From a virus, in the IMG/VR virus record IMGVR_UViG_3300013458_000001, positions 1 to 43,992 of that record: 43,992 bases of DNA. One strand, 5' to 3'. The position numbers were made by a program, and so were the translations under genes. Below the pieces are notes generated by a model. It saw only the letters and a program-made list of their open reading frames with translations. It was not told the origin of the DNA and made no database searches. Positions 2,267-35,506 of the stretch are shown here, piece after piece (the first letter of the stretch is position 1; every line of letters starts with the position of its first letter).

Positions 2267-2612
2267 ACATCAACAACCTATACACCTACAAAGCGACATG
2301 CACCAATGTAGTAGACGGAGACACTTTGGATATCTTACTGGACTGTGGCTTTGATACCTACGCTAAACGTCGTGTACGTTTACTAGGTGTCGATACGCCA
2401 GAGAGAGAGGACAAGAGAATTATAAAGAGGCAACAGCATTAACTAGATCATGTGTAGAAAACAAAGATATATACGTTCAGACGTACAAGAGTGATGTATT
2501 TGGCAGATACCTAGCTAATGTATGGTATGAGAACGGTAAATATTGCTTAAACGATGAGTTAAGAAATGCAGGATTATTGAAACCAAAATCGAAATGGAAT
2601 GAGGACGAGTAA
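2254..2612 (+). pseudogene. Staphylococcal-nuclease (SNase/thermonuclease)-like gene interrupted by a frameshift in a (GA)n run
   Basis: Frame 1 gives ...VVDGDTLD...RVRLLGVDTPERED and stops at 2442. The -1 frame is open from 2367 and reads ERGQENYKEATALTRSCVENKDIYVQTYKSDVFGRYLANVWYENGKYCLNDELRNAGLL, stopping at 2612. The join lies in gagagagagg at 2401-2410. Confidence 0.75.
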
Positions 2613-2906
2613 ATGGCAGAAGTTAAGTTATCTATGGAAGAATATCACAATGTTGTTAAGAGTTTGAATACTTTATTGGAAAAACTCTATGAGATGACAA
2701 AAAAATGTAATGATTATAAACGCCAACGTGATGAACTCACCAATGATATGGCAGAAGTGAAAAGGAAGGCGGAGGCGTTTGACTTAATTAGTAACTCTTA
2801 CACAACTGAAATAGAACAAGCTATAAAAAACAAAGAGTTAAATCAATGCTTATTCTTATTAGATCAAATATTGGATGATTTGGAGGCTAAACATGAAGGA
2901 CAATAA
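2613..2906 (+). CDS. Hypothetical coiled-coil protein (97 aa)
   Basis: ORF track. ATG immediately follows the upstream stop. Confidence 0.65.
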   Translation: MAEVKLSMEEYHNVVKSLNTLLEKLYEMTKKCNDYKRQRDELTNDMAEVKRKAEAFDLISNSYTTEIEQAIKNKELNQCLFLLDQILDDLEAKHEGQ

Positions 2907-3114
2907 GTGGACAACACTAAAAGACGAATTGACGCAAAAGTATATTAAACTTCGTGGCAAAAACAATAAAATTTCAAACGATTTACCAACTGTTGAGATA
3001 GCAAATATATTGGTTGGCAGGAAAGTTTTAAAACAACAATTACAACGCATGGACGAACTCGACGGGACACATGAGTTTCAAAATTTATTAAGTGATTTGG
3101 AGCGTGGGGAATAA
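2893..3114 (+). CDS. Hypothetical protein (73 aa)
   Basis: ATG at 2893 is preceded by the SD ggagg. The track ORF starts at 2875. Confidence 0.6.
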   Translation: MKDNKWTTLKDELTQKYIKLRGKNNKISNDLPTVEIANILVGRKVLKQQLQRMDELDGTHEFQNLLSDLERGE

Positions 3115-3275
3115 TGAAAAAATTTAACGTTGAAATTGTATATACAGGTATGCTTAATGAAACCGTTGAGGCTGAAAGTGTAGAAGAAGCTGAATTTGAA
3201 GCTCGAGATATCGCGGCGATGGAACTGTCAGTGGATATTGATGAATACACTATATCAGTACAGGAGGACGAGTAA
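3114..3275 (+). CDS. Hypothetical acidic protein (53 aa, below ORF-track cutoff)
   Basis: Hand translation gives MKKFNVEIVYTGMLNETVEAESVEEAEFEARDIAAMELSVDIDEYTISVQEDE. It has a taATG overlap upstream and its stop abuts the dut ATG. Confidence 0.55.
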   Translation: MKKFNVEIVYTGMLNETVEAESVEEAEFEARDIAAMELSVDIDEYTISVQEDE

Positions 3276-3701
3276 ATGACAAATACATTAGAAATTAAAT
3301 TATTATCAGAAAACGCGACTATGCCTAAGAGAGCAAATTCTACAGATAGCGGATTAGATTTGTATGTATCAGAAACAACAACAATCAAAGCAGGAGAAAC
3401 AAAAGCAGTTAAAACAGACGTGGCTATTAATTTACCTCACGGATATGAGGCGCAAGTGAGACCTAGATCAGGTAAGTCGCTTAAAACAAAGTTACGTGTA
3501 GCATTAGGAACAATAGACCAAACATACAATAAAGAAATCGGTATTATCACAGATAATATAGGTAATGATGATATCACAGTAGAAAAAGGAGAAAGACTAG
3601 CACAGTTAGTTGTAGCACCAGTTGTATATCCTACACCCAAGCAGGTTGATTGGTTTGAAAAAGAAAGTGACAGAGGCGCATATGGAAGCACAGGAGAATA
3701 A
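3276..3701 (+). CDS. dut: Trimeric dUTP pyrophosphatase (short form, 141 aa)
   Basis: Motifs DSGLDLY, RPRSG, GTIDQTYNKEIGII, ERLAQLV, and C-terminal RGAYGSTGE. Confidence 0.9.
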   Translation: MTNTLEIKLLSENATMPKRANSTDSGLDLYVSETTTIKAGETKAVKTDVAINLPHGYEAQVRPRSGKSLKTKLRVALGTIDQTYNKEIGIITDNIGNDDITVEKGERLAQLVVAPVVYPTPKQVDWFEKESDRGAYGSTGE

Positions 3702-3737
3702 AGATATATTAGAAAAAGTAAAAGAGGTGCTGGGAAA

Positions 3738-3971
3738 GTGAAATTATTAAGTTTAATTGCAATCGGTTTTTTGACAGTGCTTCTAGGTTGGTTTATTGAA
3801 TGTAAATTTAAGACCAAATTTTTAAATGCAATTAGTGAACTCGCAGGGGTGTTTTTGATTGTCGTGGTATTACTAATCGGACATCATTCCGATAACTCAT
3901 TGACAGCAACTGTTATGATACTTGCATTATTCTTATCGATTATAAAAAAACATGTGATTAATAAGGAGTGA
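3738..3971 (+). CDS. Small membrane protein (77 aa, two or three predicted TM segments)
   Basis: ORF track (GTG start). Hydrophobic stretches LLSLIAIGFLTVLLGWF, AGVFLIVVVLLIG, VMILALFLSII. Confidence 0.6.
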   Translation: MKLLSLIAIGFLTVLLGWFIECKFKTKFLNAISELAGVFLIVVVLLIGHHSDNSLTATVMILALFLSIIKKHVINKE

Positions 3972-3980
3972 TACCATAAA

Positions 3981-4232
3981 ATGCCATTAGATAAAACAAG
4001 AGTGTTAATGATGAACGGTATTTATAAAGTTGATGGAAAAGATAATAATGATGAATTCATTCAATATAATGATTTCCTTAAGCATAAAACTTTCTTTCAA
4101 TGTCCTAAATGCAAAAGTTTAAATGTAGAGGTTGATAATTTATTTGTTGAAAAAATTGCATTTAATAATACTAAACGATGCTTAGACTGCGGTTATTTAG
4201 TTGTATCTGATTTTCAAGGAGGAGAAGAATGA
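3981..4232 (+). CDS. Zinc-ribbon protein (83 aa)
   Basis: CPKC...x...CLDC pair of CxxC motifs. SD aaggag upstream. Confidence 0.65.
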   Translation: MPLDKTRVLMMNGIYKVDGKDNNDEFIQYNDFLKHKTFFQCPKCKSLNVEVDNLFVEKIAFNNTKRCLDCGYLVVSDFQGGEE

Positions 4233-26363: not shown

Positions 26364-26477
26364 ATGGGATTACCTAGCCCTAAAAGAAGAAAACCCACTG
26401 CTTCGGAAGTTGCAGCATGGGCAAAGAGTAGAATTGGAAAAAGATTAGATGTCGATGGTTATTATGGAGCACAGTGT
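26364..26477 (+). CDS. Virion-associated peptidoglycan hydrolase, exon 1 (CHAP N-terminus, 38 codons)
   Basis: MGLPSPKRRKPTASEVAAWAKSRIGKRLDVDGYYGAQC ends at the CHAP catalytic Cys codon. SD gaggtgg. Confidence 0.8.
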
Positions 26478-26723
26478 TAAATCTAGCACCTTTGATGAGC
26501 AATCATCATAGCAAACTCCTCTAATTCATGGAAACCCTAAACAAGTTATGTTGTAGGCAATCATGAGCGAAGCCTATAAATAGGAACGTGCAACGACTAG
26601 TCGAAAGACGTACACTCAAGCGAGTGGAAACGGGGGGCAACCTTAATGGTTGATGATATAGTCTGAACATTCATAGAAATATGAAGAAGGTGACAAGTAG
26701 CGATTGTCATCGTAACAAAATTG
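26478..26723 (+). mobile_element. Group I intron (IA-like, ORF-less, 246 nt)
   Basis: The 5' exon ends in U paired to G (gtgt/gcac). The intron ends in G. Foldable elements: P2 26493-26508 (GCAA loop), P3 26516-21/26632-37, P4 26525-31/26561-67 with A-rich J4/5, P6 26573-84, P7 26595-99/26659-63, P7.1 26600-09 (GAAA), P7.2 26613-26, P8 26638-52, P9 26670-85 (GAAA), P9.1 26691-709. Confidence 0.8.
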
Positions 26724-30296: not shown

Positions 30297-30566
30297 ATGA
30301 GAACAGATGTAGGTTCAATTGTAAGAACAATCGTATTTATTTTAGCTTGGGTTAACCAATTTTTAGCTACTAAAAACATTTCGCCTATTCCAGTAGATGA
30401 AGTGACTATCAGCTCTATTATCACTGGTGCAGTGTCTTTATGGACTTGGTGGAAAAATAATAATTTCTCTCACGCAGCACAAAAAGGACAACAAAAATTG
30501 CATGAAGTTAAAGCAGGTACAGAAAACACAAATGGTAAAGCACCAATTGGAGGTAATGATTTATGA
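30297..30566 (+). CDS. Holin (89 aa)
   Basis: Two TM segments (IVRTIVFILAWVNQFL and SSIITGAVSLWTWW), a charged C-terminus, and an ATGA overlap with the endolysin gene. Confidence 0.8.
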   Translation: MRTDVGSIVRTIVFILAWVNQFLATKNISPIPVDEVTISSIITGAVSLWTWWKNNNFSHAAQKGQQKLHEVKAGTENTNGKAPIGGNDL

Positions 30567-31945
30567 CAAATAAAACTAGAAGTCAAGCGCATGCTTATTT
30601 AGACAGGTTAAAAGGTTATTGGTGGGATTTCGACGGTGTTTATGGCGCACAATGTTTTGATTTAGCCAATCAATATTGGTACTACGTAACAGGTCATACT
30701 TTAAGTGGTATGTACGCTAAAGATATACCTTTTGTTAATGATTTTAACGGATACGCGAATGTTGTAAAAAATTATAACTCTTATATTCCTAAAAAAGGTA
30801 CTTTAGTTGTTTTTCCTTACGAATATGGTAACGGATGTGGTCATGTTGCTATTATAGAAAGTGCTACTCAAAATTATTTCTATAGTTTGGATCAAAATTG
30901 GTATGGCGGGGCAAGAAATAATCCGCCAGAGGTTGCTCAAACAATATACCACGAATATCACCCTGATATGTATTTTGTAGAACCTCTGTATTCTAAAGAA
31001 ACAAAAGTAAGTAAAATTAAAGCAAAAACAACTAAACCTAAACCTGTAAAAAAAGTTAAAAAAAGAAAAGTGATGATCGTTGCTGGTCATGGGTATAATG
31101 ATCCTGGTGCTATTGGTAATGGTTATAACGAACGTGATTTTATAAGAAAAAACATTGTTGATAATGTATCAAAATATTTGAAAGACGCAGGCCATACTGT
31201 TGGTATATATGGAAAAAAACAAGATATGTATCAAGATACAGCTTACGGAGTGAGAGTAGGTAATCACAGAGATTATGGCTTATATTGGGTAAAATCTCAA
31301 GGGTACGATACCGTTATTGAATTTCATTTAGATAGTGCAGGTCCTAAGGCTACAGGTGGACATACTATAATACCTGCTGGTTATCCTGCTAATATAACGG
31401 ATAAAAACATCCAAGAAGCATTAAAGCAAAGCGTCGGTGCTATAAGAGGAATAACTCAACGTAACGACTTATTAAACTGTAACGTTGCTAATGATATTGG
31501 TATAGATTATAGACTTGTTGAATTGGGGTTCATTACTTCATATAAAGATATGAAGTATATTAATGAAAATATAAAACCTTTCACAAAGTCGATAGCAAGC
31601 GCTATTAATGGCAAGCCAATTGGAGGAACAAGTGCAGGTAAAGTTAAAAGTGTAAAAAAAACATGGGATTGGAAAGGTAGATTTTATCCGAACACAACAA
31701 TTAAAGTAAGAAAAAAACCAAACGGCGAAATTGTAGAAAAAGGTTCTTGGTTGTACGGAAAAAACGATTGGGTAGATATTGTTCAATTATACAAAGACAC
31801 TAAGAAAAAATTATGGTGGGGTAAATTTAAATACCCAACTAACCCTAGTTCCGGTTATTTTTATTGCGCTTTGGGTGAAATCACTGACAAACAAGAGCGT
31901 ATAAAAAAAGAGAAGAAATTATACGGAAAGATAAAGTGGAAGTAA
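30563..31945 (+). CDS. Endolysin: CHAP + N-acetylmuramoyl-L-alanine amidase (Amidase_3-like) + SH3b-like
   Basis: DGVYGAQCFDL (CHAP Cys), GHVAII, VMIVAGHGYNDPGAIGNGYNERDF (amidase_3-like), and a C-terminal SH3b-like WDWKGRFYP...WW segment. Confidence 0.9.
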   Translation: MTNKTRSQAHAYLDRLKGYWWDFDGVYGAQCFDLANQYWYYVTGHTLSGMYAKDIPFVNDFNGYANVVKNYNSYIPKKGTLVVFPYEYGNGCGHVAIIESATQNYFYSLDQNWYGGARNNPPEVAQTIYHEYHPDMYFVEPLYSKETKVSKIKAKTTKPKPVKKVKKRKVMIVAGHGYNDPGAIGNGYNERDFIRKNIVDNVSKYLKDAGHTVGIYGKKQDMYQDTAYGVRVGNHRDYGLYWVKSQGYDTVIEFHLDSAGPKATGGHTIIPAGYPANITDKNIQEALKQSVGAIRGITQRNDLLNCNVANDIGIDYRLVELGFITSYKDMKYINENIKPFTKSIASAINGKPIGGTSAGKVKSVKKTWDWKGRFYPNTTIKVRKKPNGEIVEKGSWLYGKNDWVDIVQLYKDTKKKLWWGKFKYPTNPSSGYFYCALGEITDKQERIKKEKKLYGKIKWK

Positions 31946-31952
31946 CTATATT

Positions 31953-31975
31953 AAGCGGGGAAACCCGCTTTTTTA
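31953..31975 (+). terminator. Intrinsic terminator after the endolysin gene
   Basis: aagcggg-gaaa-cccgctt followed by ttttac. Confidence 0.85.
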
Positions 31976-31984
31976 CATAAAAAA

Positions 31985-31993
31985 TGGTATAAT
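31985..31993 (+). promoter_or_regulatory. Extended -10 promoter element (TGgTATAAT) for the moron
   Basis: tggtataat lies 29 nt upstream of ATG 32022. No clear -35 element. Confidence 0.6.
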
Positions 31994-32021
31994 TAGGTGT
32001 ATTAATTAGCGGGGTGGAATT

Positions 32022-32948
32022 ATGCCAATAAAAGAAACGATTTACGAAAACGATTATCTCAGAAGATTTGTTAAAGATAAAGAACAGGCTAAAAAACTAG
32101 GTAGTTCTAGCACTCAAAAAATATTGTGGGTATGTCCTAATTGTAAAACACAACTAGTAAAAAGCCCTGGAGAAATCAAAAGAAGAGGTTTTAAATGTAA
32201 AGTGTGTGCTGATAACAGATCTTATTCAGAAAGGTTAATGGAACAATTATTAAAGGATAACAACATTTTTTATATTTCACAAATGAGATTTGACAATTGC
32301 GTTTATAAAGATGTGTTGCCTTTTGATTTCTATTTACCAAAAGAAAATATATGTATAGAAATGCATGGTGAACAGCATTATGATGTTAGAAAAAACTCTA
32401 AGTGGTATGACGATAGAATGTTGTTTTCAGACAAAATTAAAGAAGAATATTGCTTAAAGAATGAAATAGACTATGTAGCTATAAACTGCAGTAAATCTGA
32501 TATGGATTATATTTTAGAAGAAATAAAAAACTCAAAATTAAGCGATATATTAAATGTTTACGACAAAAACAGTTTGAAAAACGCCGTAATGACGCGTATA
32601 TTAAATGTTGATGTTAAGTACTTAATTGATCAACACAAAAAAGGAATATCTTTTTTGGAAATTAGCAGGGAAACAGGATTATATAGAAAGAAAATAGTGT
32701 CTATTCTTAAAAAATTAGGTGAATATAATCCGAGGGGTGGAGCTAAAAACAATACTAGAAAAGTTGTTAGATTAAACGATAATAAAATCTTTGGAAGTAT
32801 TAAAGAGGCTATAGATGAAGTTGATTTAAAACAAGAAAATAACATTGTCATGGTTTGCAGAGGGAAAAGGAAATATGCAGGGCGTAACCCTAAAACAGGC
32901 GAAAAATATCGGTGGGCATATTATAGTGATTACATCGAAAAATCTTAG
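32022..32948 (+). CDS. Zinc-ribbon + Vsr/PD-(D/E)XK-like nuclease core + HTH/NUMOD-like DNA-binding protein (308 aa), an autonomous moron
   Basis: CPNC-x17-CKVC. LPFDFYLP...ICIEMHGEQHY. GISFLEISRETGLYRKKIVSILKKLG. RKVVRLNDNKIFGSIKEAIDEV...GEKYRWAYY. It has its own promoter and terminator. Confidence 0.65.
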   Translation: MPIKETIYENDYLRRFVKDKEQAKKLGSSSTQKILWVCPNCKTQLVKSPGEIKRRGFKCKVCADNRSYSERLMEQLLKDNNIFYISQMRFDNCVYKDVLPFDFYLPKENICIEMHGEQHYDVRKNSKWYDDRMLFSDKIKEEYCLKNEIDYVAINCSKSDMDYILEEIKNSKLSDILNVYDKNSLKNAVMTRILNVDVKYLIDQHKKGISFLEISRETGLYRKKIVSILKKLGEYNPRGGAKNNTRKVVRLNDNKIFGSIKEAIDEVDLKQENNIVMVCRGKRKYAGRNPKTGEKYRWAYYSDYIEKS

Positions 32949-32981
32949 TGTGATATAATTAAATTACCACGTCATTATACA

Positions 32982-33011
32982 AGGGTAGTCGCTATGGCTA
33001 CCCTCTTTTTT
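32982..33011 (+). terminator. Intrinsic terminator after the moron
   Basis: agggtagtc-gctat-ggctaccct followed by cttttttatt. Confidence 0.85.
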
Positions 33012-33059
33012 ATTGTATAATAATCTTTGTTCCTAATTTCAAACTAATACTATATTCTA

Positions 33060-33090
33060 AACCACGTTCTTTATGAGCGTGGTTATTTTT
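33060..33090 (+). terminator. Second, orphan + strand terminator
   Basis: aaccacg-ttctttatgag-cgtggtt followed by attttt. No annotated gene lies upstream of it. Confidence 0.6.
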
Positions 33091-33136
33091 ACGGAAGTAT
33101 ACACATTAAATATTAATCAGGTGTCTATACTTCCGT
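33091..33136. promoter_or_regulatory. 46-bp imperfect palindrome abutting the int 3' end: candidate attP core (or int terminator hairpin)
   Basis: acggaagtata (33091-33101) and tatacttccgt (33126-33136) are perfect 11-bp inverted arms. The arms extend to 15 of 16 matches around an AT-rich centre. Confidence 0.45.
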
Positions 33137-33143
33137 ACATATG

Positions 33144-34523
33144 TTAATAAAATTCTATATCGTTTATTTTAATAGAATGCCTGTTTTTAAGTTTTACATA
33201 ATCTATGTCGATAGACTTAATAGCCATCTTAATGAAATCTGCTTTATCTTCCAATGAGAATATTTCCCATGATTCCAATAATGCATTTTTAAATTTTTTT
33301 ATCTTATCTATATCTAGTGATTTTCTAGGTACTAATTCTTTTTGTTTTTCATATTCTGCGATTGTTTCGTCTGTTTCTTTGATTAATCCAAATAATTCTT
33401 CTTCTTTCATTAACCCTTTAGCATATAATTTATGATACCTTTTACGTTGTTCCATAATTTTGTCTATATCAATAGTAACAACATCATCTTTTTGTTTTGT
33501 CTTTACTTCGTATTTTTCTAAGTCTAGTTTAGATAGATAATCACGAAACACTCTCAATGCTTCATTCTCTGAAAAACCGAAACTTTGTTTTTTAGCTTTA
33601 CATGTGTTGCAATAATACGTTTTATAGGTAACATAACCTTTCTTTCTCTTTCTTGTCACTGTATTCAGTGTTAATGTGCCACCACATCTCGGACAAATAA
33701 ATTTACCTCTGAACACTGATACGTGACTGACTATTTTTGTATTGATTCGTTCTTCTAGCCTTTCTTTTATTTGTTGATACATTTCTTCGGTAATAATAGG
33801 CTCGTGAGAGTTTTCTATAAATACATCTCCCCAAGTATAATGACCTCTTGTTATAGGACTCCTTAGTGCTCTTGTTATAGTTCTATCTTCCCACTTTTTA
33901 CCATTAGGAGGTGGTATATCTGAATCGTTTAATTTTCTAGCTATAGCTTTTGAACTATTACCTTTCATCACTTCGTCGTATGCCCATAAAACTACTTTTT
34001 TATAATCATTAGGAATGTAAGTGTTATCTACACGATCATAATAAAAGGGTGGTGGTGTGAGTATCATGCCTTGTTTAATCGCTGCGCGTTTACCCATCAT
34101 AACACGCTCTCTAATGGTTTCTCTTTCCCACTCTGCCATAGCACCAACTAATGTAACAAATAGTCTACCCATAGCTGTAGATGTATCATAAACTTCAGTA
34201 GCACTTCTGAATGCTACGTTATTCTGTTCGAATACCTCTAATAAATCAAGTAGATCACGTACATTACGTGTAAGCCTATCTAACTTATACACTAAAACTA
34301 AATCAAACCGTTTAATATCATTCATCATACGTTGTAATTCTGGTCGTTCACGTTTAGCACCAGAGAAACCAGCGTCAATAAATACGTCTGATACACTCCA
34401 GTCATTTATTTCACAAAATGATTTAAGCTTCCTTTCTTGTTCTTCAATAGAATAACCGTGCTCTTTTTGTTCTAATGTACTGACCTGACACGAACGTAAA
34501 TAGCTACGTTCATAATTCATCAC
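33144..34523 (-). CDS. int: Large serine recombinase (integrase). The N-terminal catalytic motif region is displaced by a 5-bp tandem duplication, so it may be non-functional.
   Basis: Resolvase-domain motifs (VSTLEQKEHGYSIEEQ, DRLTRN), recombinase and zinc-ribbon regions (CPRCGG...CNTC), and a C-terminal coiled coil. The well-spaced ATG at 34512 reads MNVAIYVRV and then shifts out of frame. Confidence 0.8.
   Translation of the reverse strand: MMNYERSYLRSCQVSTLEQKEHGYSIEEQERKLKSFCEINDWSVSDVFIDAGFSGAKRERPELQRMMNDIKRFDLVLVYKLDRLTRNVRDLLDLLEVFEQNNVAFRSATEVYDTSTAMGRLFVTLVGAMAEWERETIRERVMMGKRAAIKQGMILTPPPFYYDRVDNTYIPNDYKKVVLWAYDEVMKGNSSKAIARKLNDSDIPPPNGKKWEDRTITRALRSPITRGHYTWGDVFIENSHEPIITEEMYQQIKERLEERINTKIVSHVSVFRGKFICPRCGGTLTLNTVTRKRKKGYVTYKTYYCNTCKAKKQSFGFSENEALRVFRDYLSKLDLEKYEVKTKQKDDVVTIDIDKIMEQRKRYHKLYAKGLMKEEELFGLIKETDETIAEYEKQKELVPRKSLDIDKIKKFKNALLESWEIFSLEDKADFIKMAIKSIDIDYVKLKNRHSIKINDIEFY
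34480..34489 (-). repeat. Tandem 5-bp duplication GTCAG|GTCAG (coding strand) in int codons 9-12
   Basis: The + strand reads ctgac ctgac. Removing one unit restores ATG AAC GTA GCT ATT TAC GTT CGT GTC AGT ACA = MNVAIYVRVST. Confidence 0.8.
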
Positions 34524-34579: not shown

Positions 34580-35506
34580 TTAATTATTTTTTGGTGGCGT
34601 ATCTGTTCCGAAAATTGAGGGGTGGCCACCAGAATGGTCTTGTGGTACTTGTTCCATTTGTGATTCATCGTGAGTAGTTGGTTTTGTTTTGTTCCATTCA
34701 TCTATTTGTGAAGGTGTCATATATCCATTATCTTGTTGTTTATTGCTTTGGTTAGTGTTTGTCTGAGATTGACTTACTTGTTGTTTTCTCTCGTAAGATT
34801 GATTTGTTGATGATTGTGCTTGTTTCATTTGAGGATTTTCATTATTTCCGTTATTATCTTGTGGTTTTGGATTATCGCTTTTAAATGTATTTTCTGATTC
34901 GTTATTCGCAACATCTTTACTATCTTCTTTTGAACTACTAGCAGAATCGTTTATAATATCATCTGCCGCAGAATAATCTACGGACTTTAGTTTGCTAATA
35001 TCTATTTTCTTGATACCCAGTTTTTTACCCTCTGTGCCTTTAGTAGCTTTAAGTGTCACTTGCTTATCATTTTCTAATTCATAAGTAATAATACCTTTAG
35101 CAGTTTTACCTTTCTTAATTACATCATTGTTGTGTTTGTCCCATTCTTCGAATTTACCAGTATTAGGCGTTGGACCAACTTCAAGTTTACTTTCAGTATT
35201 TTCGCTATCTTGTGTAGTCTCCATCGACGCTATCCAAACATTCATTGGTGTGATTTGTTCGTTCCCGTCTTTGCTTTTAACTTCGTATTTAAAAGCTAAT
35301 AGTTTCTTACCATTATCCGAATCCTTATCATTAACTAAAAATGTATCTTTTATTTTTAATACAGCTTGATCCAGGACTAAAGTATCGTTAGTGAATTGCA
35401 CTTTGTTTTCATCAACGGAAGTCGTTTTTTTCGAATTGCTATCATTGTTACTACATGCGCCTAAAACTAAGAAACAAGATAATAAAATAAATAAAACCTT
35501 TTTCAT
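34580..35506 (-). CDS. Lipoprotein (308 aa) in the lysogeny module
   Basis: Signal peptide plus lipobox MKKVLFILLSCFLVLGAC, a beta-rich domain, and a Q/N/S-rich low-complexity tail. SD aggag is 9 nt upstream. Confidence 0.8.
   Translation of the reverse strand: MKKVLFILLSCFLVLGACSNNDSNSKKTTSVDENKVQFTNDTLVLDQAVLKIKDTFLVNDKDSDNGKKLLAFKYEVKSKDGNEQITPMNVWIASMETTQDSENTESKLEVGPTPNTGKFEEWDKHNNDVIKKGKTAKGIITYELENDKQVTLKATKGTEGKKLGIKKIDISKLKSVDYSAADDIINDSASSSKEDSKDVANNESENTFKSDNPKPQDNNGNNENPQMKQAQSSTNQSYERKQQVSQSQTNTNQSNKQQDNGYMTPSQIDEWNKTKPTTHDESQMEQVPQDHSGGHPSIFGTDTPPKNN

Follow-up and report, generated by a model that had tools for sequence, protein, structure and literature searches.

The prototype of the EDxHD nucleases is I-Bth0305I, and the composite motif defined for it corresponds to E25, D51, H64, H69 and D97 of Vsr; Hef of phage U5 is cited as another member of the Vsr-like family (PMC3239194). 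A 2025 paper added a previously unrecognised outgroup of EDxHD/Vsr homing endonucleases, in which CapR/DUF4379/DUF723-like modules precede a distantly Vsr-like nuclease, and members of this zinc-module outgroup were found inside introns (PMC12350094). Here we analyse an open reading frame (ORF) of 308 amino acids (aa) at positions 32022-32948 of IMG/VR virus record IMGVR_UViG_3300013458_000001; "the window" denotes the whole stretch of 43,992 nucleotides. The window represents a temperate siphovirus of Staphylococcus epidermidis, genus Rockefellervirus, near phages PH15, phiIPLA7 and HOB 14.1.R1. In existing annotations (PH15, phiIPLA7, E72 and many prophages) the gene is a "hypothetical", a "conserved phage protein" or a "putative endonuclease". 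We consider it probable that the ORF is a free-standing homing-endonuclease-type gene from the zinc-ribbon plus Vsr-like branch of the EDxHD/Vsr nucleases, forming a self-contained cassette of terminator, promoter and ORF. The gene belongs to a known family and is not a new kind of defence system. What distinguishes it is its strict post-endolysin position, its own conserved transcription signals and the existence of two divergent alleles competing for one slot.

The ORF and the parts of its product lie in the window as follows:

32022-32948, plus strand: nuclease ORF, 308 aa, ATG start; equivalents are ph29 of PH15 and gp27 of phiIPLA7
32133-32207, plus strand: C4 zinc ribbon or treble-clef finger, DUF4379-like, C38xxC41-x17-C59xxC62
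32217-32561, plus strand: Vsr-like (EDxHD-type) nuclease core, aa 66-180
Conserved residues of the core: E70 at 32229-31, D102 at 32325-27, E113 at 32358-60, H115 at 32364-66, H119 at 32376-78, D137 at 32430-32, K140 at 32439-41
32613-32717, plus strand: predicted three-helix DNA-binding module of helix-turn-helix (HTH) type, aa 198-232, from the model; HTH_23 is found in the equivalent region of homologue P0012
32754-32942, plus strand: putative C-terminal NUMOD-like DNA-binding module, aa 245-307, beta-beta-alpha-alpha in the confident model

A sequence-only reading of this DNA had proposed the domain order zinc ribbon, Vsr-like core, HTH and C-terminal module, which proved correct according to the conserved cysteines, the fold match and the structural model. 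It had also called for a structure prediction followed by a fold search, and these did return a nuclease fold. The AlphaFold model of the full-length protein has a predicted local distance difference test score (pLDDT) of 87.5 and matches Vsr, TnsA and the R2 restriction-like endonuclease, with weak Foldseek scores against the PDB (best E 0.012). Because of this weak whole-chain result, the core was modelled on its own for the fold comparison. The model of the core alone (aa 64-183) reaches a pLDDT of 91.4 and a predicted template modelling (TM) score of 0.84. Its top PDB match is the catalytic domain of I-Bth0305I (3r3p_B, probability 1.00, TM 0.54/0.64), followed by the Vsr-like domain of AbaSI and then by Escherichia coli Vsr (1vsr, 1cw0). 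At the level of the predicted structure, this confirms the core as Vsr-like by fold.

The residues expected of such a core are conserved. In an alignment of 90 homologues, D102, F103, E113, G116 and H119 are invariant and C38, C59, C62, E70, E117, Q118, D137 and K140 nearly so, with either H or Q at position 115. The hhalign register places E70, D102, E113 and H115 onto Vsr E25, D51, F62 and H64, at E values (0.05-0.07) that are not significant alone. H119 and D137 are placed by motif spacing (PMC3239194), and together with the hhalign positions they fill every position of the EDxHD motif.

The modules around the core are recognised with varying strength. The zinc-ribbon cysteines are kept across homologues, and Pfam DUF4379 matches aa 14-64 at 23.3 bits, below its cut-off of 24.5. 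The I-HmuI NUMOD-like model (PF22083) scores 18.3-19.3 bits on aa 255-287, where the gathering cut-off is 27; a similar motif (E 0.015) is N-terminal in Ioh, a member of the family from Kayvirus phages. A Vsr-like core joined to separate DNA-binding modules, as these models and profile matches show, supports the proposal that the product is a sequence-directed nuclease. The C-terminal module had further been likened to the tail of the HNH protein at 1389-2084, and this likeness is not significant (BLASTP E 7.6, hhalign E 0.23). The segment that hhalign aligns is the one named, and in PHROGs the C-terminal modules each match their own family only; homology was therefore rejected, and at most a motif pattern is shared.

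Profile searches connect the ORF to a large family of phage nucleases. In PHROGs it matches phrog_4538 at 3e-112, and further families annotated as homing endonuclease (1.7e-30), HNH endonuclease and intron-encoded nuclease. Representative clusters of the family number 13,121 at E<=1e-3, of which 3,174 remain at E<=1e-10. Among viral structures in BFVD, 127 match at E<=1e-3, and many of these bear the name of a homing endonuclease, a VSR endonuclease or a group I intron protein. Homologues of the ORF pass for PF14311, PF05265 and CapR, and DUF5889 is also carried; an NCBIfam search with the ORF itself gave nothing usable. The family is multi-copy in large lytic Staphylococcus phages, and most relatives occur in strictly lytic phages.

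The genomic positions of the relatives are those of mobile genes. One stands free between TerS and TerL in a Streptococcus thermophilus phage, another lies between the fragments of a split TerL gene in Enterococcus phage vB_EfaH_149, and others adjoin introns. A distant relative sits within an array of at least five tRNA genes on an IMG/VR contig (L043). In the slot occupied by the ORF itself, presence, absence and allele replacement are all observed among related phages.

A 510-aa relative is also found in a bacterial chromosome, that of Ureibacillus yapensis (NZ_QWEI01000002.1; locus L021, 3398-4930). It has the full architecture, with DUF4379 and an I-HmuI NUMOD-like match at 26.2 bits. A DUF4145 protein is encoded beside it, as is a transporter-like product, and the 9 kb examined contain no gene that is obviously of phage origin.

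The neighbourhood of the ORF, from the endolysin gene to the integrase gene, is organised as follows:

30563-31945, plus strand: endolysin gene (CHAP-Amidase_3-SH3b, 460 aa), conserved left neighbour of the nuclease ORF, stop codon at 31943-31945
31953-31980, plus strand: upstream intrinsic terminator, stem 31953-31970 (7 bp, 5 GC pairs) followed by a T-run; ends the late/lysis operon
31985-31993, plus strand: extended -10 box TGGTATAAT, with no recognisable -35
32011-32017, plus strand: Shine-Dalgarno-like GGGGTGG, 4 nt ahead of the ATG, read from the sequence
32951-33014, plus strand: post-endolysin element, with an extended -10-like TGATATAAT (32951-59), then AAATTACCACG, then a terminator hairpin (32982-33004) and T-run
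33060-33094, plus strand: second terminator-like hairpin, stem 33060-33084 followed by the tail ATTTTTACGG, just ahead of the phage attachment site (attP)
33085-33142, no strand assigned: attP core, an imperfect inverted repeat (33085-33105 / 33122-33142) around the crossover ATATTAAT (33110-33117)
33144-34523, minus strand: serine integrase gene, on the opposite side of attP from the nuclease ORF

The ORF is the final gene ahead of attP, 162 bp away, and thus occupies the slot beside the attachment region that the sequence-only reading had assigned to it. In integrated copies it is the terminal prophage gene. The published crossover and the phage arm of attL map to window positions 33110-33136, and the published description of the region mentions only "a putative endonuclease" and reports no lysogenic-conversion genes (PMC8125051). 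The arms that flank the crossover, ACGGAAGTATAC and GTATACTTCCGT, are both phage-type; the window is therefore the excised (phage) form and not an integrated prophage.

The slot is variably filled. The nuclease gene is present in 9 of 39 related phage records. In CNPH82 and five others (CNPx, IME1348_01, 27, 456 and 459, with identical copies) the slot is occupied by cn31, a 386-aa homologue. It is 37% identical to the ORF from the zinc ribbon through the core to the HTH; its N-terminus is different, and it has no NUMOD-like module at the C-terminus. The two alleles share flanks of 94-96% identity, which on the left end at 31995 and on the right resume at 32951; these two positions are the breakpoints of the exchange, which is limited to the coding sequence. 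The slot is empty in phiIPLA5 and BE21, and holds unrelated small ORFs in BE20 and vB_SepS_48. The upstream terminator is the first element of the cassette; it falls within the 94-96% identity shared with the cn31-type phages and is missing in the empty-site phages. The post-endolysin element marks the right boundary: in phiIPLA5, BE21 and vB_SepS_48 this TGATATAAT-starting element follows directly 3' of the endolysin stop codon. The cassette is therefore moron-like, with a terminator of its own and presence or absence between related phages.

Further traces are seen around the alleles. In CNPH82 (locus L002, 2963-3000) the spacer after the cn31 stop codon contains AAGTATATTAAAT, identical to the final codons of the phiIPLA5 endolysin gene, and AAATACACTGGAAA, matching the stop-codon region of the BE21 and vB_SepS_48 endolysin genes. 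The spacer may be a scar from insertion into the 3' end of an endolysin gene that was already resident, with marginal statistics (shuffle p ~0.01-0.06). At both ends of the ORF, TG[G/A]TATAATTA forms a short direct repeat (31985-31995, 32951-32961), and these boxes may be recombination points, since the 308-aa/cn31 exchange breaks next to both.

The two terminators that had been claimed to insulate the ORF were both found, each as a hairpin with a T-run, and terminator-like sites are in excess in the region (7 against 1.9 expected). The extended -10 element fared less evenly: it is present at 31985-31993, but TGNTATAAT occurs five times in the window against 4.5 expected, so that a single match is not above chance, and a -35 element looked for upstream of the ORF in the window was not found. 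Support for the promoter comes instead from conservation of the position of the box: each of six homologous, diverged loci has TGNTATAAT at the equivalent place, accompanied in two of them by a TTGAC -35. Every homologous locus has the same layout of endolysin stop codon, terminator, TGNTATAAT, Shine-Dalgarno sequence and ORF. This conserved layout, and not the single box, is the real evidence that the ORF may be transcribed autonomously.

The post-endolysin element has features of its own. In it, AAATTACCACG is followed after ~10 nt by a hairpin with a conserved GGGTAG 5' arm, with a folding energy of -14.3 kcal/mol (z = -3.5). It is present with or without the nuclease gene and persists across lineages that are ~60% diverged, with copies at 32951-33014 of the window, at 5943-6010 of L013 and 5928-6000 of L016, and right after the endolysin stop codon in L004, L005 and L007. 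Compared with Rfam, the element matches no family. It could be a very short transcript of ~45 nt, a protein-binding site or simply the terminator of the late operon. Its AAATTACCACG (32961-32971) is complementary to CGTGGTTATTT (33078-33088), which lies 106 nt further on and forms the right arm of the second hairpin, and ACCACG recurs at 33061-33066; these repeats could be putative binding sites adjoining attP.

The link to endolysin genes extends beyond the genus. Full-length homologues at 66, 63, 60, 48 and 47% identity each stand right behind an endolysin gene. A separate scan of genome contigs gave eight loci, mostly distant. The endolysin-plus-nuclease unit is coupled to either serine or tyrosine integrases, and the identity of the nucleases is decoupled from that of the endolysins, which indicates that the two genes have been reassorted while remaining adjacent. 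On one lytic-type contig a member of the lineage is flanked by two lysin genes, and an HNH/NUMOD4 gene stands two genes upstream of it. In these lytic-myovirus-like Logan contigs (L019 / L020) the lysins are Amidase_3-SH3b and CHAP-SH3b and the upstream gene is HNH_3/NUMOD4; homing-type genes seem to have a hotspot in the lysis region of this phage. The ratio of nonsynonymous to synonymous substitution rates (dN/dS) in the nuclease lineage is 0.08-0.13 for unsaturated pairs, indicating that the protein is maintained by selection.

The alternative that the sequence-only reading had offered, a free-standing homing endonuclease, accordingly fits the PHROGs annotation, the I-Bth0305I match, the described outgroup (PMC12350094) and the presence, absence and replacement in the slot. 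On this favoured reading, a long degenerate DNA site would be bound by the HTH and the NUMOD-like module, probably together with the zinc ribbon, and the Vsr-type active site would make a Mg2+-dependent cut close by. By analogy with D51/D97/H69 of Vsr and D196/D222/H213 of I-Bth0305I, metal binding would fall to D102 and D137 and the role of general base to H119. The target would lie in related genomes that do not carry the 308-aa allele, near the 3' end of the endolysin gene or at the endolysin-attP intergenic junction. The break would be repaired from the nuclease-carrying genome, in co-infection or when a phage meets a resident prophage, and the repair would copy the cassette plus adjoining endolysin sequence. 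Homing with such co-copying of neighbours would account for the sharp boundaries, the allele replacement, the linkage to endolysin genes and the location where modules are exchanged. Other phage nuclease genes are reported to show a similar pattern (PMC10055350). A resident prophage might also make the nuclease and cut incoming relatives, because the ORF would have its own promoter behind the late-operon terminator. The nuclease may be expressed from the prophage, and its homing-type cleavage may exclude related phages as a side effect.

Several results weigh against this reading. Searches of the PDB with phmmer, with a full-family profile and with a domain-only profile recovered neither 3r3p nor Vsr at E<=10 and gave only zinc-ribbon repeats (DUF4379 proteins) or noise. 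It was by fold comparison alone that the nuclease was identified, and since these searches gave no sequence-level match to I-Bth0305I or Vsr, the ORF is placed in a distant outgroup and not in the core of that family. Rfam detected no group I intron around the TerL-interrupting relative of vB_EfaH_149, even at permissive settings, nor at 20 distant viral loci, so that intron-encoded members rest on record annotation and on PMC12350094. All 19 records with the endolysin allele of the window carry one of the two nuclease alleles and none has an empty slot; there is therefore no isogenic gain/loss pair that would reveal recent homing. The neighbouring endolysins of the lineage are of at least four architectures (CHAP-Amidase_3-SH3, CHAP-Amidase_2-SH3, Amidase_2-CHAP-SH3b_P2, Amidase_3-SH3b), with no conserved coding target evident. 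Finally, the lineage is fixed in one slot down to 47% identity under strong purifying selection, and such long retention also fits a gene kept for its benefit to the phage.

A more specific form of the homing-type reading, which we regard as unlikely, is that the endolysin-linked lineage is more than selfish and serves as an inter-phage weapon, with constitutive production from the end of the resident prophage. Its two mutually exclusive alleles, the 308-aa form and cn31, would each cut the endolysin-attP junction in relatives whose site is empty or holds the other allele. Were this true, an incoming phage would be excluded, or its lysis/attachment region converted, and the nuclease would drive the boundary between lysis and integration modules in staphylococcal temperate phages.

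The best-surviving rival holds that the ORF encodes a prophage-borne exclusion or defence nuclease that does not home, that is, a domesticated protein of the homing-endonuclease family that is constitutively expressed at the end of the prophage, cuts incoming phage or plasmid DNA and protects the lysogen. The moron-like layout with terminators on both sides and a -10 box would suit such a role, as would the terminal prophage position adjoining attP and the long retention in a single slot under purifying selection. Vsr-like domains are moreover known in type IV restriction enzymes such as AbaSI, the second PDB match, and cn31 has a weak match (E 1.8e-4) to a model for methyl-directed restriction enzymes. 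However, the anti-phage or anti-plasmid factor proposed by the sequence-only reading matches no known defence family: PADLOC-DB v2 gave no convincing hit, the best being PDC-S69 at E 0.004 and 14.8 bits over 60 residues (aa 66-126 only). The lysogenic-conversion role suggested along with it does not suit the family, which is found mostly in strictly lytic phages, often in several copies, and has a lineage member between two lysin genes in a lytic-type contig; published descriptions of these phages give the region no lysogenic-conversion function (PMC8125051). The HTH and NUMOD-like modules are typical of homing endonucleases, and the allele-for-allele swap in one slot is typical homing-endonuclease behaviour. 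Taken together, these points leave the defence nuclease a minority possibility.

It is improbable that the ORF serves the phage's own life cycle as a lysis- or late-linked nuclease, for host DNA degradation or late DNA processing, without spreading itself. Its constant adjacency to endolysin genes in temperate and lytic-type contexts, and the purifying selection, would be in keeping with this. However, a terminator and a promoter box of its own in every locus indicate that it is not co-transcribed with the lysis genes, and it is dispensable, as related phages have an empty slot or unrelated small ORFs in its place. The long multi-module DNA-binding regions imply site specificity and not bulk degradation.

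Slightly less probable still is the proposal that the nuclease acts in trans on the ORF-less intron 5.3 kb upstream, as a partner in collaborative homing. The intron is real (26467-26686; Rfam RF00028, 95.3 bits); it lies in the tail-associated cell-wall hydrolase gene and is 98.9% identical to a PH15 intron. The literature reports two spliced introns in PH15, and Rfam at the gathering threshold finds only one in the window. A precedent exists in Kayvirus Fi200W (locus L012, JX080303.2 57500-63000), where two complete ORF-less group I introns (1836-2113, 2177-2404), 77% identical to that of the window, split the tail tube gene tmpA, and Ioh (2579-3982; orf104 in phage 812), a free-standing family member, starts 175 bp past them. 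This arrangement looks like collaborative homing. In derivatives of phage 812, the tmpA introns and the nuclease gene were kept or lost together (PMC6445280). In the window, however, the gene does not adjoin the intron, and its lineage is tied to the post-endolysin position and not to the hydrolase gene. Within the genus, intron and ORF assort independently: the intron is present in 4 of 7 ORF-positive and 4 of 14 ORF-negative phages (Fisher p = 0.35). It occurs without the ORF in phiIPLA5, BE21, BE01 and PG-2021_89, and the ORF occurs without it in phiIPLA7, which has an unsplit 1902-bp hydrolase gene, and in PG-2021_90 and PG-2021_93.

It is very improbable that the ORF is what remains of a homing endonuclease gene in decay and no longer active. 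Such genes commonly degenerate after fixation and the PH15 copy has an indel near its start, but every catalytic and zinc-binding residue is kept throughout the lineage, dN/dS is ~0.1 and the other copies examined are full length. The indel in ph29 of PH15 (L001 / L033) falls within the first dozen codons, and the gene is annotated there from a later start, at 301 aa. It is either a sequencing error or the onset of decay in PH15 alone.

On the other side of attP, a second ORF of 308 aa adjoins the integrase gene (34580-35506, minus strand). It begins with a lipoprotein-type signal, MKKVLFILLSCFLVLGAC, and its C-terminal half is low-complexity and rich in Q, N and S. It may be a prophage-encoded surface lipoprotein, hence a candidate superinfection-exclusion factor.

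The analysis gives a specific, testable identity to a poorly annotated gene of S. epidermidis phages and many prophages, and ties one lineage of a large zinc-ribbon plus Vsr-like family to the position right after endolysin genes. If the protein homes or excludes relatives, it would help to explain the reassortment of lysis and integration modules at their boundary, and could bear on the use of these phages for transduction or as a source of endolysins. For nuclease engineering, Vsr-like enzymes of modular build, whose DNA-binding domains can be separated, have some interest as scaffolds. The field's current understanding is unchanged by the result.

Among the known systems, E. coli Vsr, AbaSI and PvuRts1I share with the ORF the fold and the arrangement of catalytic Asp and His residues, but are without the combination of zinc ribbon, HTH and NUMOD-like modules. 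Vsr is a nickase of T:G mismatches with an internal zinc site, whereas in AbaSI and PvuRts1I, which are type IV restriction enzymes, the nuclease is paired with an SRA-like reader of modified cytosine.

The best match among solved structures is I-Bth0305I (PDB 3R3P), from the recA intron of Bacillus phage 0305phi8-36. Residues E70, D102, H115, H119 and D137 of the ORF correspond to its Glu170, D196, N208, H213 and D222, and both proteins have an acid at the position of Vsr F62 (E113 in the ORF). Both are phage-borne and combine a nuclease with HTH-type DNA-binding modules. I-Bth0305I is intron-encoded and lacks a zinc ribbon, and its nuclease is C-terminal, preceded by two NUMOD2 modules at the N-terminus, whereas the ORF is free-standing and has a zinc ribbon ahead of the nuclease and DNA-binding modules behind it; no likeness between the two is detectable by sequence or profile search. 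Hef of the T4-related phage U5 is reportedly, from work by Sandegren et al. in 2005, a free-standing homing endonuclease that replaces a different endonuclease gene at a fixed intergenic slot. By this description, Hef and the ORF are alike as free-standing Vsr-like nucleases that take part in an allele swap at an intergenic slot, Hef coming from T4-like lytic coliphages.

Closer relatives share the free-standing state or the locus itself. Kayvirus Ioh, annotated in phage 812 (orf104) as a "putative intron nuclease", has a core 35% identical to that of the ORF (E 5e-13), is free-standing and carries a NUMOD-like motif; it differs in its length of 467 aa, in the N-terminal place of that motif, in belonging to a lytic myovirus and in adjoining the two ORF-less tmpA introns. 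The cn31 allele fills the same slot; the terminator and -10 box that precede it and the element that follows it are those found around the ORF. It differs by a 155-aa N-terminal extension, the missing NUMOD-like module and another downstream spacer. The described outgroup (PMC12350094) has three to five zinc modules with the nuclease at the end and is intron-encoded; the ORF, by contrast, has a single zinc ribbon and an extra HTH and NUMOD-like C-terminus, and is free-standing in a temperate phage. Both have DUF4379-type zinc modules followed by a distantly Vsr-like nuclease, and both have thousands of unannotated relatives.

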